Part shown: piece after piece, positions 4,031 to 62,460 of the stretch
How the letters are laid out: the number at the start of each line of letters is the position of its first letter
Position numbering within the stretch: the first letter of the stretch is position 1
Assembly: GCA_964383765.1 (NCBI GenBank)
Contig: CAYLHT010000001.1
Coordinates: forward strand, 36,998 to 100,997
Reading direction: 5' to 3'
Source of the DNA: an uncultured Gammaproteobacteria bacterium
GTDB lineage: Bacteria > Patescibacteriota > Patescibacteriia > SBBC01 > CAIJZX01
DNA length: 64,000 nt
Program-made: the position numbers and the translations under genes
The notes under the pieces: model-generated
Told to the model about the DNA's origin: nothing
The model's database searches: none
The model's input: the letters and a program-made list of their open reading frames with translations, nothing else

Positions 4031-4345
4031 TTACGTCGTTACGTTCGATGTTGTTCTGGCTACATACGCCACGATCGCCCAGGCCAGGAGGACAATCACC
4101 AAGCCGATGACTGTTGTTTGTAAAACATTTCTGACTCGTTCGCGCACGACGTCGCTTTGTCCGGATCCTAGGTAATTGAAGGCCACGCCGAACAAAATCA
4201 TCACTAACGCAGTTAATGCCAAATATCCCAGCACGGTGCTCAGTGTATGCAACGTTGCCGTCTTGAGATCAGTGTCGGTAAATCCTAAGGTTGGACCGAT
4301 GGGTTCCAGGCTAATAGCGAGGCGGCTGGAAATAGTGCTGATCAT
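4031..4345 (-). CDS. small two-TM membrane protein, possibly a TrbC/VirB2-like pilin (hypothetical)
   Basis: 104 aa with two long hydrophobic segments separated by a polar loop. Size and topology resemble conjugative-type pilins, but there is no motif-level proof. Confidence 0.4.
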   Translation of the reverse strand: MISTISSRLAISLEPIGPTLGFTDTDLKTATLHTLSTVLGYLALTALVMILFGVAFNYLGSGQSDVVRERVRNVLQTTVIGLVIVLLAWAIVAYVARTTSNVTT

Positions 4346-4364
4346 GGGAGTGCGAGAGTCGACT

Positions 4365-5012
4365 TTAGGTAACTTGGAAAATATTTATTCGACGCTCGGC
4401 CGAGAGGATGAACTTGTGTTGCTCGAGAAACACTTTAAGTCCGTCGATATCCCCCTTCGGTCCCATGTACTCCAAAAAATCTTCAAGTGAATCGAATTGA
4501 AAAATTGTTTCATCCCAAATTTCAGCCACTTCATTCATTCTATCCTGGTTGAGCATAGCCGCATAGGCGAGAGCCTTGACCCGACGCTCATCGCCATCAC
4601 CGGCCCCAAATTTTTCCTCAGTCTGTAAAAAGGTGCCATGATTCCCGGCTTCGAGAAAAATTATCCAACCGCCAGGCTTCGTGACGCGAACGGCTTCGTC
4701 AACTGCTTGAGACATGAATTCCGGCGGAACATGGTGGAGTGACAACGTGAAGAAAACGGCGTCAAAATGTTGCTTTTCGAAAGGAAGCTTTTCAGCCGCG
4801 GCGATGTGATAGGAAATATTTGGTCTCGCATGTAGTTTCTGTGCTTCCGCGATGGACTCAGGGTTTGGGTCGACGCCAACCAGGTTTCGTACTTTTTCTG
4901 CCAAAGTTACAGAACGTCCACCCTGACCGCACCCAACCTCAAGAACATGTAACCCCTGAAGCGGGATTACTGCGTTAACTTTTTGAACAAACTCTTCTTT
5001 AAGTCTTACCAT
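4365..5012 (-). CDS. class I SAM-dependent methyltransferase
   Basis: Motif [11 protein letters not shown], 215 aa, overlaps trmD by 14 nt (operon). Confidence 0.8.
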
Positions 5013-5649
5013 GAACTTTCTTCATCTTTTTTCGCCATTCCGCAATGCCTTTATGATGCCCGCTCAACAATTCTTTCGGCACGCGTTTACCCTTAAACAC
5101 TTCTGGTCGAGTGTATTGTGGATATTCTAACACTCCCGGCTGGCTATGCGACTCATCAACTGACGATTCGTCTTTGCCCAACACACCGGGCAACAATCGT
5201 GTCACCGCATCCATCACGACCATAGCCGGTAATTCGCCGCCGGTCAGGACGTAGTTGCCGATGGAAATTTCTTCATCGACATAATCCACGACACGCTCGT
5301 CCACGCCCTCATACCGGGGACAAATAATGACAATCTGCTTGTATTTCGATAGTCGTTTTGCATCGGCCTGGGAAAATGTTTTTCCTTTGGCCGACATCAA
5401 CAAAATGCGTCGTCTTCCTTTCTTTGGTAGGGCTTTGAGGGCTTTGAAAATCGGTTCAACTTTCATCACCATGCCTACCCCACCGCCATACGGTCGGTCG
5501 TCGACACTACGATGTTTGTCAGATGTGAAATCGCGGAGATCGTGGAAGTGAAACGACACCAGTTTCTTTTTTTGAGCGCGTTTAATGATGCTCTCGTTCA
5601 GGTAAGCATCAAACATTTTTGGGAAAATGGTCAGTAGGTCGAAACGCAT
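4999..5649 (-). CDS. trmD: tRNA (guanine37-N1)-methyltransferase TrmD
   Basis: [16 protein letters not shown]...[13 protein letters not shown] aligns with the E. coli TrmD N-terminus and SPOUT knot. The start is set at the Met of MRFDLL (cat at 5647-5649) rather than the longer ORF start at 5697. Confidence 0.9.
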
Positions 5650-7028
5650 ATATGGTAGTATATAACATGATGGAGAGGACGACGATAACCACCCCAATCA
5701 AGACTACCCGTAAAATCGAAACGAAGGTTGGTTTAACCTTTATTATTGTGGCTACAGGGTTACTCGGGCTTGGCCTACTGGCCGTCGGCGCAACGGCTAC
5801 GAAAGCTTCTTTGACTGGTTATTTTTTTCGCGATAGCCGAACTAACAAGACGTGGTACGCCGAACCAACGACCGGCTACCGCTATGATGTGACGAGTCCT
5901 GCCCGCTGGAAAAAACTTTATCAGCGGACGGCGCTCATCATCTCAACGGACCAGCTTAACTTGATCCCAGTCTTGAATGACTCCAGTCCTGGCGATGACG
6001 CGACTCGGGCGCGGTACTCAGGGCGAGTGGTGACAACCGGAGACGGTCTCTATTGGTATGTGTATCCAGGCACGAAAACTCGATATGCAACTACTGACTC
6101 CGCCGTCCCAACCCAGCTACTCAACGGAAACGTCTCAATCGCACTCATGTTGTGGCCCACTGATCCCGGTATTCGCACGGGAACCACCAAAGTTCAAACC
6201 CGCACGGGTAGCTTCACCGTCAAATACCTGCGGGTGAATCGGATTAATCCCGATTTCCGGTTGATGACCGATAATACCAACCTCGGACAGTGCCACCCAA
6301 CAAGCTGCACTTGCGGACCAGAGTCCTCGCCAGCCTGCCAAGAATTTTATCGAACCTCCTGCCCACTCTGTCGAAGTCAAAGCTTCGGCACCTTTATCAA
6401 GTCACGCGGGGCCTCGGCTGGCATCAATGGAACATATTTCTTTAACGCCGGCGGCGACCTCCGGGACACCAGCCTGTTTATCGTCATGAATTCGTATGCA
6501 CCAATCAGTTCCTTCACCTGGGGCCGGAATCCGTTGGGTGGGAAAAAGCGAGCGGGATTCTCAGTTGATACCTCGAATCGAATATTCTTCGATGTGCCGC
6601 CGACAAAATGTGAGGACACTTTGCGCATTGGCAACTCGACGCCGTTGGAAACAACCGCCCAATGTGTAGCCAGAGTGGTTGGTAGTTGGTCAACCAGTCA
6701 TGGCGGGACGGGTAAACTTCAAGCCCTCGTCAACTCCGATGCAACTCTCGTCCTCAACCGCACGAACGTGATCAGTCAGTACACCTTAGATAGCAAGCAG
6801 AAAACCGCCCACTCCACCCGCAACGGGATTGGATTCCGAGGAAACGAGATCTGGATGTTCGTCGTCTACGGGGCGACCGTTCCGGATGCTGCGGCCGTTG
6901 CCACAGCGATGAAATTTGATAATGCTGTCAATCTCGACGGCGGCGGGTCAAGCACGCTCTACGCGAATGGCCAGTACTTGGTCGGGCCGGGCCGAGCCAT
7001 ACCGAACGCTATTTTGATTGCCAAATAA
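5619..7028 (+). CDS. secreted/membrane-anchored phosphodiester glycosidase family protein (DUF2233-like)
   Basis: N-terminal TM anchor and C-terminal [11 protein letters not shown] motif, characteristic of the NAGPA/phosphodiester glycosidase family. The true start is probably ATG 5667 (MMERTT). Confidence 0.55.
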
Positions 7029-7112
7029 TCATTATCGACTCTGGTCAACTGATAGATACTGTATCAGCTGAACATAATCAACACCTTCATCAGGTGAAGT
7101 TTACATTAGCAT

Positions 7113-7406
7113 TTGTCTAGACTTCTTGGTCGAAGGTGCTACACTAGTTCTTACCTTCGTATGGCCATTATCAAAAAAACCCAGCGGGATGAGTACATCG
7201 TGGTTCACCACGTGCGCGGTGAAGGTGACGTGTTAGATTTTCTGCACATGACCAGCCACATCATTCTCGATCGACTCTGTTTCCAGGCGCGGAACGGCCA
7301 AGCCGCCGAGTTTACGTATCGTAATCGTAAGTACACGATGACCTGGAATTCCCGGGACGACACATTTGAAGTTACTCAGGTTGATGAAGCGGTGGAAGTC
7401 ATGTAA
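7113..7406 (+). CDS. hypothetical protein
   Basis: 97-aa ORF followed by a strong rho-independent terminator; no recognisable motif. Confidence 0.4.
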   Translation: MSRLLGRRCYTSSYLRMAIIKKTQRDEYIVVHHVRGEGDVLDFLHMTSHIILDRLCFQARNGQAAEFTYRNRKYTMTWNSRDDTFEVTQVDEAVEVM

Positions 7407-30200: not shown

Positions 30201-31103
30201 CTAAAATGGAAGCCCTTCGTCCACGTTGACCGGTGGGGTCGGGTGAGCTTCATTTGCCGGCTCTGCTGGGGCTGTTGGCGGCGGTTCGTTCGGTGAGGAA
30301 TCGTGACCGCGCAGGGTTGGAATGGCTAGATTTTGGCTCGGTGGCTCGGTCGGTTGATGAGGCTCAGTCATAGTCCCACCCGTAAAGCCAGCGGAAAATT
30401 GGCTGAGCTTCGGAGCCGCTGGAGCAGCGGGCGGTGGGGTTGGTGCAGTTTGTTCTACTGGCGCAGTGTGTGGTGTTCCGGTTTGATGGTCTGGAGCGGC
30501 CGACCAATTGTTTGGGGTGTCGGACAGTGGAGTGATCGCTCCCATGGCTGGTGTACTCGGCTGGCGTCCGGTAATCGGTGCATGTTGGATGTGAAGCCGC
30601 TCCTGGAGACTTGCTCGATTTTGAGCCGTTGTCGGGGCACCTCGCGTGATCGCTTCGTGCTGGGGTGTTTGCTCAGCCTGTATTTTGATGAGCTTTCCAC
30701 CACCCTGTGTGTCTGTTCCCGAACTCATGCCTGATGCCAGGCCGCCGGCCGCTTGCTTTTGCATGCGTGCAATATGGGTCGCGGCCGCTGCAATTTTCTT
30801 CATGCCCTCCTTTGTCACAACCCCACCACGGGTATATTTGCCGAGAGCATATAACTGTTCCTTGGTGAAGCCTTCGCGTTCACCATGTCGAAAGGCGATC
30901 GCCTCACGATTGAGCTCTTTGTCGATCGGTGATTTGATGTACCCTTTCCCGCCGGCGATTTTCAAAAAACCTTTCATTTGCTCTTTCGCTGATTCCTGAT
31001 GAAATGGTTTTGGGGTCGGCTGTGGGCGCGTAGGTTGTTGGCGAGCAGGACGACTAAGACCTCCGCCAGAGCGGAGAACAGCCAAAGTACTTTTTGCAAT
31101 CAT
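30201..31103 (-). CDS. hypothetical Pro/Thr/Ala-rich low-complexity protein
   Basis: 300 aa; the C-terminal half is a PTPPAAPAAP-type low-complexity region. Confidence 0.45.
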   Translation of the reverse strand: MIAKSTLAVLRSGGGLSRPARQQPTRPQPTPKPFHQESAKEQMKGFLKIAGGKGYIKSPIDKELNREAIAFRHGEREGFTKEQLYALGKYTRGGVVTKEGMKKIAAAATHIARMQKQAAGGLASGMSSGTDTQGGGKLIKIQAEQTPQHEAITRGAPTTAQNRASLQERLHIQHAPITGRQPSTPAMGAITPLSDTPNNWSAAPDHQTGTPHTAPVEQTAPTPPPAAPAAPKLSQFSAGFTGGTMTEPHQPTEPPSQNLAIPTLRGHDSSPNEPPPTAPAEPANEAHPTPPVNVDEGLPF

Positions 31104-31284
31104 AGAGAGATTATATCATTTTTTTGACCCAAAGTCAATCTAGATATGCGAACGCTTGCAAATAATTGCGTCTTCATATATACTCGCCAAGCTTTATTCA
31201 CTAAGAAAACGCTTTTCTTTCCCCTGACGCTCAAGCGTCGTCAGGTCCCGATGTGCTTCGCAATCGGGATAAACAATTGAATAT

Positions 31285-53282: not shown

Positions 53283-53648
53283 GGGTTCCATCGCGGGCCA
53301 GAGATTGGATCGCGCCTGAGCGTGCTTGTGGTACACTTGGCTAGCCACCGTTCCGGCCTTTGACCGGGAAGGAGGTGATCCTCAGTGACGGCCGGAATTG
53401 CGGCTCGAAACTTGAATGGATCAACCTTTGAACGGAAAGGTGGTGGCCATGGACTTTACATGGCTGGCCTCGTTGCTCGGACTGTTCCGAGAGATCGGAA
53501 CGTTCGCCGCAGTCGAAGCCGATCCGGACGGACCCTGCGGTCCGAGCCGGCATTTCCCCGGCTAGTGGACGAAGGTCCAACTGCCGGTTCATCGCCTTGC
53601 GATTCAGTGGGTTCCCCCCTCCTGGATCTCGAGGGATCTATTGACCAG

Positions 53649-53676
53649 GCGCACGCAGGACGCGTGCGCCGTTTTT
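53649..53676 (+). terminator. strong rho-independent terminator closing an ORF-free GC-rich region
   Basis: GGCGCACGC-agga-GCGTGCGCC followed by GTTTTT. Confidence 0.65.
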
Positions 53677-53792
53677 CTAAAAAGTTTTTCTGGTGGGCGG
53701 TAGAGGATTCGCCCCTGCGGGGCCGGGGTCGCCACCGGCGACCCGTTGCTCGACGACTCGCAACCCTCTGACCTTTCTTTTTACCTCTCCGC

Positions 53793-53870: not shown

Positions 53871-53902
53871 ACAAGCAGAGAAATAAATATGTAAAGTTCT
53901 TC

Positions 53903-53971
53903 CTTCACAATGCCTGCCCTGAGCCTGCCGAAGGGTCAATGTGACGCTCTAACCAACTGAGCTAACCGCCC
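53903..53971 (-). pseudogene. tRNA-Val(GAC) 5' portion (acceptor to anticodon stem) with a 23-nt insert after nt 36 and no adjacent T-arm
   Basis: Minus strand GGGCGGT-TA-GCTCAGTTGGTTAGAGC-G-TCACA-TTGAC-[CCTTCGGCAGGCTCAGGGCAGGC]-AT-TGTGA-AGG, followed by non-tRNA sequence and then the complete tRNA-Val(GAC). A possible matching 3' remnant ...GGGGCGAATCCTCT-ACCGCCC-A-CCA lies at 53691-53725. Confidence 0.45.
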
Positions 53972-58675: not shown

Positions 58676-59604
58676 GCGATACACAAACCTTAGTTGTGCC
58701 GGCTGATCGTCAGCCAGTGCGGCTGGATGTTTTTTTGGTTGAACACGCAGACTTGTCTCGTTCGCAACTCCAAAAGAAAATCAAAGCCGGCCACATTTCC
58801 GTCAACGACAAATCCGTGAAAGCCCATCACCTGGTTCATCCGGGTGACGTGGTCGCGATTGAAGGGTTAGAAGTTCCGGTTCATGCCGAAGCCAAATCAA
58901 TGGATGGATTGGAACCAGAAATTTTACTTGAGAATAATGAATATCTAGTCGTCAACAAGCCGGCTGGACTGGTCGTGCACGGTGGTCTAGGGATTCATGA
59001 ACGGACATTAGCGGATTGGGCGGTTGAGCACGATCCGAAAATCGCGGAGGTTGGTGATCAACCCAAACAACGACCGGGCATTGTCCATCGTCTCGACCGT
59101 GATGTCTCAGGCGTAATGGTGATTGCGAAAACACAGGATGTTTTCAACGATCTCAAAACGCAATTTCAAGATCATTCGATCACCAAAGAGTATCTGGCGC
59201 TGGTCTACGGTCGCGTCGTGGATCAGGCTGGACGGATTGATTTTGCAATTGCGCGGAAAGCAGACAAATCCGGACTGATGGTGGCGCGACCGAAGTCGCA
59301 GGAAGGAAAGTCGGCAGAGACGTTGTTTCATGTTGAGCGCTATGTGAAGGGCAATACGCTGGTTCGCGTCCAGACGCTGACCGGCCGCTCGCACCAAATC
59401 CGCGTGCATTTCAAAGCTATTGGTCATCCGCTCGTTGGCGATCCACTGTACCGTGTCCGCAAGCTGAAAATCCATAAACTGACGCCACCGCGGCTGTGTT
59501 TGCACGCCACCAAGTTAGAATTTGATGATCTTGGTGGACAACGAATGAAATTTGAAGCCCCGCTGCCGAAAGACTTGGCGCAGTTTTTGGCGCGGGCGGG
59601 GTAA
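58660..59604 (+). CDS. rluD: RluA-family 23S rRNA pseudouridine synthase (RluD-like, S4 domain)
   Basis: N-terminal S4 domain (RLDVFL...SRSQLQKKIKAGHISVN) and catalytic motif HRLDRDVSGVMVIAK. Confidence 0.85.
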   Translation: MVEPMSDTQTLVVPADRQPVRLDVFLVEHADLSRSQLQKKIKAGHISVNDKSVKAHHLVHPGDVVAIEGLEVPVHAEAKSMDGLEPEILLENNEYLVVNKPAGLVVHGGLGIHERTLADWAVEHDPKIAEVGDQPKQRPGIVHRLDRDVSGVMVIAKTQDVFNDLKTQFQDHSITKEYLALVYGRVVDQAGRIDFAIARKADKSGLMVARPKSQEGKSAETLFHVERYVKGNTLVRVQTLTGRSHQIRVHFKAIGHPLVGDPLYRVRKLKIHKLTPPRLCLHATKLEFDDLGGQRMKFEAPLPKDLAQFLARAG

Positions 59605-59610
59605 GACTGT

Positions 59611-59682
59611 CACTCCACCCCCTCGGCTGCGCCGGTCCCCCTCCTCTGAATTCAGAGGAGGGGGACGATGGGGGGAGGAGTG
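59611..59682. repeat. nested palindromic MITE-like element, copy C (intergenic, 7 nt after the rluD stop)
   Basis: CACTCCACCCCC..GTCCCCCTCCTCTGaattCAGAGGAGGGGGAC..GGGGGGAGGAGTG; the inner 14-nt arms are perfect. The right arm forms AGAGGAGGGGG-ACG-ATG (an SD plus start) for ORF 59668-59934. Confidence 0.7.
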
Positions 59683-60074
59683 AAGAAACACCCGGTGTTG
59701 ACCAGGCAAGTTAAGCCTGGTAGCGTTTGGACGCACTGGAAGGCTCTTAGTTGCTTGGTCAACCCAAGCTCACAACGCGAAGGAGTGAACATGATCCCAC
59801 GGGCGGTTGCAACCACAGGAATCGGCTACACTCTCCTCGTTGGAGTTCTAGAAGGACTTCGATGGTTGGCCAAACGGTTGTGGCCACAGGAGGTAACCAA
59901 GCATGACATCGCAAAATGCACCTCCCAGAAGTGAAGGACTAGGGAAGCCGATCATCTTAATGCTCATCGTGCTGGCTCTCGGGATAGGATTCGCTCTGTT
60001 CCTCAACGAGCTCGATCACAACCGAAAGCCTGGAGTCACACACCACCAACCATTCCTGCCGTAAGGAGGGATGT

Positions 60075-61663: not shown

Positions 61664-61736
61664 GGGCCAGTAGCTCAGTTGGTAGAGCATCCGGTTTGCA
61701 TCCGGAAGGTCTGGGGTTCGAATCCCCACTGGTCCA
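61664..61736 (+). tRNA. tRNA-Ala(UGC)
   Basis: GGGCCAG-TA-GCTCAGTTGGTAGAGC-A-TCCGG-TTTGCAT-CCGGA-AGGTC-TGGGG-TTCGAAT-CCCCA-CTGGTCC-A; no CCA encoded. Confidence 0.9.
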
Positions 61737-61744
61737 CTAAAAAA

Positions 61745-62240
61745 ACACCCGGTCTCGGAGTCGTGTCGAGGATTATCCATCCAGGATGCACGACCCGAGG
61801 CCGGGGTTGGTGGAGCGACGCGCGAATGCCCGGAGAGCCGGGTAGGCTGTTATCCGTGCAAGCGCCAGTGGCGCTGCAATACGGGAGCCTTGAGCCTCGG
61901 CGATGGGCGCCGCCGCGAATGCGGCGGTCTAGTGCGCGGTATCAACTTGCGCGTGAGCGAGCCCAACGACATCGTCGTTGTGTTCCCTATTCGAGGGAAC
62001 CTATCGGTGTTTTGGGTGAATCTCAATTCACCGACTGGCTCTTGCGGCCTCACGCCGCGGCGGTACTCTTCTTCATGGCGACCTCCATGGTTGGCCAGAA
62101 AGCGGGCGCACTCCCAGGGTTGGGACTGCCCCGACAGTGAAGACTTTTTCAAGATGCCCGAGCAGTATACACCCTTTTCGGATTTTGTCAAGACGGGCTT
62201 GAAAATAATGCCCAAGTCAGCTATCCTTGCCAGGCAATTT
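61745..62240 (+). other. GC-rich, hairpin-dense, ORF-poor block between tRNA-Ala and tRNA-Phe; unassigned structured RNA candidate
   Basis: Contains the hairpins CCCGGTCTCGG...CCGAGGCCGGG (with inner GTCGTG/CACGAC), GCGCC-agt-GGCGC and CCGCCGC-gaat-GCGGCGG, plus the 12-mer CCGGGTAGGCTG and CTTGAGCC seen in bacterial RNase P RNA. The only ORFs here are low-complexity or span the tRNA. Confidence 0.25.
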
Positions 62241-62245
62241 TGATC

Positions 62246-62320
62246 GCCTGGGTAGCTCAGTGGTAGAGCGCAGCCCTGAAGAGGCTGGCGTCGTCAGTTC
62301 GATTCTGACCCCAGGCACCA
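62246..62320 (+). tRNA. tRNA-Phe(GAA)
   Basis: GCCTGGG-TA-GCTCAGTGGTAGAGC-G-CAGCC-CTGAAGA-GGCTG-GCGTC-GTCAG-TTCGATT-CTGAC-CCCAGGC-A-CCA. Confidence 0.9.
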
Positions 62321-62397: not shown

Positions 62398-62460
62398 ACA
62401 ATATTTCAATTCACCAAAACACCCCGCTAGGCGGGGCGTTCGGTTGACATAATTCGAAAA

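Follow-up and report, generated by a model that had tools for sequence, protein, structure and literature searches.

Introduction

Small stable RNAs occur in tRNA clusters, among them the species 1 and 2 RNAs of phage T4 and RNAs derived from tRNA spacers, and prophages carry as cargo so-called morons, which are autonomous units made up of a promoter, a gene and a terminator. The larger RNA ROOL is about 580 bases in length. ROOL and GOLLD, the latter longer than 800 bases, are big non-coding RNAs with elaborate structure and no known function; they are encoded in mobile DNA, in phages as well as prophages, and 'often near tRNA islands' (PMC12286853).

We analysed a 64 kb stretch of DNA (hereafter the window) from a candidate-phyla bacterium, in which a GC-rich, hairpin-dense block interrupts a tRNA cluster. 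The block lies inside this cluster at a site that in relatives holds a recombinase or defence islands, which matches the setting of ROOL and GOLLD in mobile DNA near tRNA islands (PMC12286853), and like them it is a candidate for a large folded RNA at a variable, mobile-element-prone tRNA site. By context, ROOL and GOLLD are its nearest known kind. However, the block is smaller (~415 bases), has no adjacent phage genes and belongs to no family of relatives, and membership in either class was rejected because their Rfam models gave no match at E ≤ 10. A likeness to morons lies in the organization of the insert as one self-contained unit, running from a sigma-70 promoter to a factor-independent terminator with a GC content unlike that of the host, although its content appears to be RNA rather than protein and no prophage surrounds it. 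Finally, the block resembles RNAs of the T4 species 1 and 2 type in its position inside a run of tRNAs, and if the plus strand were the sense strand, tRNA processing would release an RNA from it. RNAs of that type are, however, much shorter and lie on the strand and promoter of the tRNAs, whereas the best signals of the block are on the opposite strand.

A hairpin-dense non-coding block between tRNA-Ala and tRNA-Phe

The block (61738-62245) fills the gap between tRNA-Ala and tRNA-Phe (62246-62320, plus strand) in a plus-strand run of five tRNAs ordered Leu-Val-(80-residue membrane protein)-Ala-Phe-Lys. Its GC content is 62-66% compared with ~53%, reaching 0.62-0.655 over 61700-62000 against 0.49-0.57 in the surroundings, a level that equals that of the tRNAs (0.59-0.62) and is unlike that of the genome. 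Within 170 bases there are five different stems of 6-7 base pairs, all of them perfect and with loops of 3-5 bases, and the hairpin density of the block is the second-highest in the window. On a codon model trained on the long genes of the window, all six frames of the block score between -0.14 and -0.56, compared with +0.10 to +0.46 for real genes, small ones included. An earlier note on this DNA had described a hairpin-dense, GC-rich, non-coding block here, and GC content, folding statistics and codon scores all bear this description out, as does the presence in the block of every hairpin that was quoted. The block is therefore real and non-coding.

Folding energies are far below those of dinucleotide shuffles on either strand, with z-scores of -5.7 (minus) and -5.0 (plus); when both strands were folded over the same coordinates, the z-scores were -6.15 (plus) and -5.83 (minus). 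The minimum-energy folds reach -203.3 kcal/mol with 14 G.U pairs on the plus strand and -185.0 kcal/mol with 4 on the minus strand; the plus-strand fold is thus 18 kcal/mol more stable, but the z-scores are equal once composition is controlled. The two folds have 117 base pairs in common and are predicted to contain long-range helices and a multi-way junction (Table 1), and we identified no GNRA loops, other recognised tertiary motifs or pseudoknots in the block. Hairpin H8 as folded has a mutually exclusive alternative, a perfect 7-pair stem GGTGAAT/ATTCACC at 62015-62032. Most of the stems are perfect Watson-Crick palindromes, which are uninformative on strand and could reflect an origin at the DNA level.

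Table 1. Features of the block and its immediate flanks, by position in the window
Feature	Position	Strand	Basis
tRNA-Ala, left flank	61664..61737	+	ARAGORN, alignment
Run of seven U directly after H1	61741..61747	-	sequence
Putative terminator hairpin H1, 17 stem pairs, -36.6 kcal/mol on the minus strand	61749..61806	-	folding
Folded body of the predicted RNA, ~350 bases, non-coding	61808..62157	-	folds of both strands, codon usage
Long-range helix with partner 62060-62068, closing a central domain of ~240 bases	61813..61823		predicted on both strands
Predicted stacked-helix domain: GCCC/GGGC, GCCGGG/CCTCGGC, AGGCT/AGCCT and hairpin H3 (61854-61884)	61828..61908		folds
Hairpin H4, CCGCCGC-GAAT-GCGGCGG, the stretch earlier called tag-like	61910..61927		stem search, folds
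Predicted junction domain: closing helix GAGCC/GGCTC round hairpins H6, H7 and H8	61959..62041		stem search, folds
Hairpins H6 and H7, perfect 7-pair stems each	61964-61980; 61982-62000		stem search, folds
Hairpin H8, predicted pairing TCGGTG/CACCGA (6 pairs) plus TTG/CAA	62004-62034		folds
Hairpin H9, GCGGC/GCCGC	62044..62058		folds
Hairpin H10	62077..62096		folds
Hairpin H11, 12 pairs, CGGGCGCACTCCCA / TGGGACTGCCCCG, 5' domain of the predicted minus-strand RNA	62103..62133		folds
-10 hexamer TATACT of the putative minus-strand promoter	62164..62169	-	consensus match; spacing would place the transcription start at ~62157
-35 hexamer TTGACA of the putative minus-strand promoter	62186..62191	-	consensus match
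Promoter of tRNA-Phe/tRNA-Lys, TTGAAA-17-TATCCT	62199..62227	+	consensus match, alignment

Predicted transcription signals delimit a candidate unit on the minus strand

At the right-hand end of the block, a putative minus-strand sigma-70 promoter, TTGACA-16-TATACT (62191-62164), matches the consensus at 11 of 12 positions. Only two sites of 11/12 or better occur in the window (128 kb counting both strands), where shuffles lead one to expect 0.67, and the consensus can be considered predictive in this DNA because six of the eight sites with at least 10/12 matches lie upstream of genes or of the 16S rRNA. The other 11/12 site, at 31110-31138 on the minus strand, ends 6 bases ahead of the ATG of gene 30201-31103, a spacing that suggests a leaderless mRNA for this gene.

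At the left-hand end, the sequence just past hairpin H1 is UGUUUUUUU on the minus strand and GUUGGUGG on the plus strand, such that H1 together with its seven U reads as a canonical terminator on the minus strand only. The neighbouring minus-strand HU gene closes with a terminator of the same kind. In the tail of that HU gene terminator (62409-62423), a stretch in inverted orientation has 15 of 16 bases in common with 62006-62021 of the block (GGTGTTTTGGGTGAAT), a similarity that may be due to chance.

Taken together, promoter and terminator define a predicted minus-strand unit from ~62157 to ~61741, or roughly 415 bases, in which a non-coding body is bracketed by its own promoter and a factor-independent terminator, as in a stand-alone RNA gene. 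Whereas the earlier note had taken the plus strand to be the sense strand, it is the minus strand that carries the clearest transcription signals.

The block is an insertion at a variable tRNA site

Among Patescibacteria, 50 relatives of the 80-residue flanking protein were identified, a number of them under the name Kerfeldbacteria. In L095, the closest relative (flanking protein 89% identical), the gap between tRNA-Ala and tRNA-Phe measures 105 bases, and in two others (L082 and L084, 84% identity) it measures 138 bases; given these 105-138 bases between the same tRNAs, the block represents an insertion of ~450 bases. The tRNA-Phe promoter aligns across the window and all three relatives, and what is extra in the window extends from the U-run through 6 bases past the -35 hexamer of the minus-strand promoter, with boundaries at about 61741/61748 and 62197. 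Kept in relatives and divergent from the element's own promoter, the tRNA-Phe promoter marks the right edge of the insertion. As judged from these alignments, the inserted DNA consists of exactly the promoter, the folded body and the terminator with nothing left over. Placement in a tRNA operon had been regarded as typical of rnpB, ssrA or 6S-like RNAs, but L095, L082 and L084 lack the block at this site, and because it is missing from the same cluster in the closest relatives, it is not a conserved housekeeping RNA of the tRNA operon. At its 3' end (61735-61740) tRNA-Ala reads CCA-CTA where relatives have CCACCA, a change that coincides exactly with the insertion's left edge; tRNA-Ala is the sole tRNA of the cluster without an encoded CCA.

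Homologue searches returned a single similar piece of DNA, a 935-base contig that is identical and derives from one sequencing run. The organism occurs in run SRR12313480. No block homologue was found by blastn and nhmmer in 95 fetched loci, nor by a covariance model built from the single sequence of the central 158 bases in the window plus 37 loci, and blastn against phage and plasmid records revealed nothing similar to the block. Pattern searches fared no better: twelve degenerate patterns on both strands against JGI metagenome contigs and six plus-strand degenerate patterns against viral contigs came back empty, and three exact hairpin patterns gave one chance palindrome match (L094) among viral contigs. 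Protein-space searches with the three long block ORFs, meant to pick up mistaken gene calls in homologous elements, were likewise empty. A scan of GTDB genomes for synteny anchored on YmdB found no close relative (best 52% identity). Across the collections searched, the block therefore appears to be an orphan, found only in this candidate-phyla bacterium.

The site itself is highly variable among relatives. In L082 it holds a duplicate of the 3' half of tRNA-Ala (4333-4405) and a large serine recombinase (4725-6308), in L090 an island of SMODS, SLATT and DUF2188 (4421-6350), and in L095 a duplicated 5' fragment of tRNA-Phe (about 470-494); other relatives display inverted and reshuffled tRNAs and partial tRNA duplicates. 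These contents mark the tRNA-Ala/tRNA-Phe site as a hot spot for integration and for defence islands. Round the block we found no convincing flanking att-type direct repeats or terminal inverted repeats, and within it no tandem or interspaced repeats such as CRISPR-like or TIGR-like arrays. An origin of its hairpins from tRNA fragments was rejected, as the block contains only chance words of 8-10 tRNA bases. In L085, a spacer beside tRNA-Phe (6874-7313) is made of repeated tRNA-Phe fragments and has a strongly negative fold z-score, and one of these fragments carries an insertion of ~33 bases in the anticodon loop.

A candidate gene for a structured RNA

We tentatively favour a reading in which the block arrived by horizontal transfer and is a self-contained orphan gene on the minus strand that encodes a structured RNA of ~415 bases. 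In this model, ~450 bases of foreign DNA sit between the 3' end of tRNA-Ala and the tRNA-Phe promoter and would form one complete, compact minus-strand transcription unit with a near-consensus sigma-70 promoter. The GC-rich body of ~350 bases would fold into several domains of short stable helices, and the strong hairpin followed by seven U would end transcription just short of tRNA-Ala, giving a stand-alone structured non-coding RNA of ~415 bases that is antisense to the direction of the tRNA cluster. By analogy with the large structured RNAs near tRNA islands, such an RNA may be cargo of a mobile element and may act by its shape rather than by base-pairing to a target. Both transcription of the minus strand and the RNA as its functional product are what we infer from these signals and folds.

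Alternatively, the block could be a non-functional relic of a mobile element or island, with promoter and terminator as leftovers of a lost cargo gene and hairpins without a role. The hypervariability of the site in relatives, with a recombinase, a defence island and tRNA-fragment scars, agrees with this, as do the restriction of the block to one assembly contig and one sequencing run, its GC content foreign to the genome and the presence of other GC-rich hairpin blocks next to tRNAs both in the window and in relatives. Yet promoter, folded body and terminator account for all of the inserted DNA, neither tRNA-derived fragments nor att-type direct repeats flank or fill it, and decay is unlikely to leave a z-score of about -6, five perfect stems of 6-7 pairs and an 11/12 promoter. 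We consider a relic possible but on the unlikely side.

Strand assignment

The strand call is partial: G.U counts in the modelled folds (14 versus 4) lean towards the plus strand, and the transcription signals point to the minus strand. Were the plus strand the sense strand, the block would be a structured trailer or spacer that is co-transcribed with tRNA-Ala and freed by tRNA processing enzymes. Such a trailer would have the same orientation as the five tRNAs and the more stable of the two folds, and the plus strand has more G than C (137 versus 119) and more T than A (85 versus 76), as is usual for sense strands of structured RNAs, a bias that counts against the minus-strand reading. The marginal RNase P-like chain of matches described below also lies on the plus strand, where a branched helix (62070-62143) is followed by CUUUUUC just ahead of the tRNA-Phe promoter. 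This terminator-like helix is weak, however, with a z-score of -1.7 and no place in the centroid structure, and the advantage in fold stability vanishes in the z-scores when composition is controlled. A trailer would moreover leave the 11/12 promoter and the hairpin and seven-U terminator of the minus strand unexplained, and in relatives tRNA-Ala runs directly into the tRNA-Phe promoter with no trailer between them. Overall, a plus-strand trailer strikes us as unlikely.

The open reading frames of the block

Three overlapping ORFs of more than 100 codons run through the block, and the public record of this genome annotates a 104-residue protein (P0051) on its plus strand. An orphan small protein gene, either this call or a minus-strand ORF of ~100 residues, could therefore be envisaged; the minus-strand ORF (62152 to 61850) fills the promoter-terminator unit, beginning just past the predicted transcription start and stopping 44 bases ahead of the terminator. 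It has no ribosome-binding site ahead of it, though, and three overlapping ORFs of this length indicate that open frames come cheaply at such a GC content. Their translations are rich in Arg and Pro, as non-coding GC-rich DNA would give, and the codon-usage scores are negative, although a foreign gene could score low too. Searches with the three long ORFs in 1.84 billion protein representatives and 5.8 billion clusters found no relatives other than P0051, which is the same genome's own gene call and a singleton. Pfam gave no match for these ORFs, and PHROGs gave only noise for the block ORFs, the one weak match (E 0.022) being to a family without known function. These findings agree with the earlier statement that the block holds no credible ORF. 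We therefore regard an orphan protein gene as very improbable and the 104-residue annotation as probably spurious. On the minus strand, 62059-62087 contains GGAGG in the loop and stem of H10 followed 5 bases on by an ATG and an 8-codon ORF (MKKSTAAA-stop).

Relation to RNase P RNA, tmRNA, 6S RNA and introns

The earlier note had further proposed that the block might be RNase P RNA, tmRNA or a 6S-like RNA, and had called for covariance searches with these and with intron models. What has stood from that interpretation is a strongly folded non-coding element without a gene for a known protein; none of the named RNA identities has. At gathering score, Rfam detects only tRNAs in the block region on both strands, and at E ≤ 10 the searches with RNase P, tmRNA, 6S and intron models on both strands yielded no supporting match.

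Two RNase P-like words in the stacked-helix domain, at 61838-61849 and 61889-61896, are truly present in E. coli rnpB: compared with a fetched E. coli rnpB sequence, CCGGGTAGGCTG equals positions 289-300 and CTTGAGCC equals positions 301-308, directly next to it, and thus rnpB 289-308 is matched at 20 of 20 bases in two collinear pieces with a 39-base hairpin between them. The first word includes G292-G293-U294, the residues that bind the CCA of tRNA. Further short matches, collinear with these words, extend as a chain up to the 3' end of rnpB, and the block is similar in length and GC content to type A RNase P RNA (RF00010). The excess over chance is marginal, as the 12-mer arises in 2.5% of shuffles and the score of the chain is attained by 2% of composition-matched shuffles and by 0.6% of other windows.

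Against the reading of the block as a plus-strand RNase P RNA, either intact or as a degenerate fragment, bacterial A and B, archaeal and type T RNase P models gave no match at E ≤ 10 on either strand, in searches of 1.1 kb and of 201 bases, and the block thereby fails the models of both RF00010 and RF00011. Both strands of the P4 catalytic helix, GGAAAGUCC and CCCGGCUUA, are absent from the block, as is any close variant pair, and no P4 pairing is possible between the nearest candidates, AGAAAGCGGGC and GAACC-UAUCGG. The 12-mer with its GGU, unpaired in the P15/16 loop of RNase P, is predicted to be fully paired here, buried with the second word in local hairpins that are unlike the helices of RNase P. 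As had been recognised before, there is too little room for a full-length rnpB on the plus strand: just 100 bases precede the words up to tRNA-Ala, which leaves no space for the 5' two-thirds of the molecule. Because the block is not conserved in close relatives, it cannot be the essential RNase P gene; when the loci of 14 relatives were scanned with Rfam for an rnpB with which to compare it, none turned up. RNase P identity is hence exceedingly unlikely, and as far as these alignments go the words seem to be a coincidence or at most a relic, which we record as unexplained.

That the block is a tmRNA or 6S RNA has next to no chance of being correct, since despite a 5' GGGGC and a 3' GCUCCACCA just ahead of the terminator on the minus strand and short Ala-rich frames closed by stop codons on both strands, ARAGORN predicts no tmRNA in the block region, tmRNA models (permuted included) and 6S models gave no acceptable match on both strands at E ≤ 10 in the 1.1 kb and 201-base searches, the top tmRNA-family score (15.7 bits against a threshold of 47) overlaps tRNA-Ala, and no T-arm or T-loop stands beside the acceptor strand GCUCCACCA. 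As far as ARAGORN and Rfam models can test them, both readings are refuted. The stretch likened to a tmRNA tag (GAAANAAV-stop) is the palindrome of hairpin H4 read in frame. Group I and II intron models, group II domain V included, found nothing at E ≤ 10 in the 1.1 kb search, and the sole intron-family match, an 11-bit partial match to group-II-D1D4-2 in the 201-base search (E 4.6), is noise. For annotation, the region should be labelled neither rnpB nor ssrA, and the protein call in it should be treated with the caution expressed above.

Possible significance

If the predicted RNA is real, it would add a large, independently transcribed structured RNA to the Patescibacteria (Kerfeldbacteria-like), a lineage whose repertoire of non-coding RNAs is hardly known, and would provide a further example of folded RNA carried as cargo where elements integrate at tRNAs. 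One could go further and regard it as the founding representative of a new class of large structured RNAs that are mobile cargo at tRNA islands of candidate-phyla-radiation bacteria, with a lifestyle comparable to that of ROOL or GOLLD but an unrelated sequence and fold, a reading that we think unlikely. A still bolder variant would have the block RNA reuse an RNase P-like CCA-binding module to contact the 3' ends of tRNAs. As a singleton the block carries no larger claim yet, and the outcome is a clear rejection of the identities proposed for it, together with a plausible candidate for a new RNA.

Other structured regions of the window

A second GC-rich, hairpin-dense non-coding block of ~400 bases (53283-53690, z -5.45) lies beside tRNA-Val(gac) and closes with a plus-strand terminator (53648-53670, then GTTTTTCT). 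It belongs to no Rfam family, its ORFs are negative on codon usage and it has no similarity to the 61738-62245 block. Relative to L082, the window has ~1.9 kb extra between tRNA-Ile and tRNA-Val, comprising an SDR-type dehydrogenase, a membrane protein and this hairpin block. Just past tRNA-Val(gac), a partial tRNA copy (53884-53964; 16.4 bits, model positions 8-63) resembles an integration scar.

The strongest fold residual of the whole window is found at 59604-59800, a long nested palindrome round GTCCCCCTCCTCTGAATTCAGAGGAGGGGGAC situated between an rluD-like gene and the small membrane ORFs that precede the L19 gene, with only noise in Rfam. Searches of these two other hairpin blocks with Rfam, at gathering score and at E ≤ 10, gave tRNAs and noise only. 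Lastly, the 16S rRNA gene (minus strand, 1-1600) takes up 1600 bases for model positions 1-1488, which implies ~110 bases of insertion; rRNA insertions of this kind have been reported in bacteria of the candidate phyla radiation.
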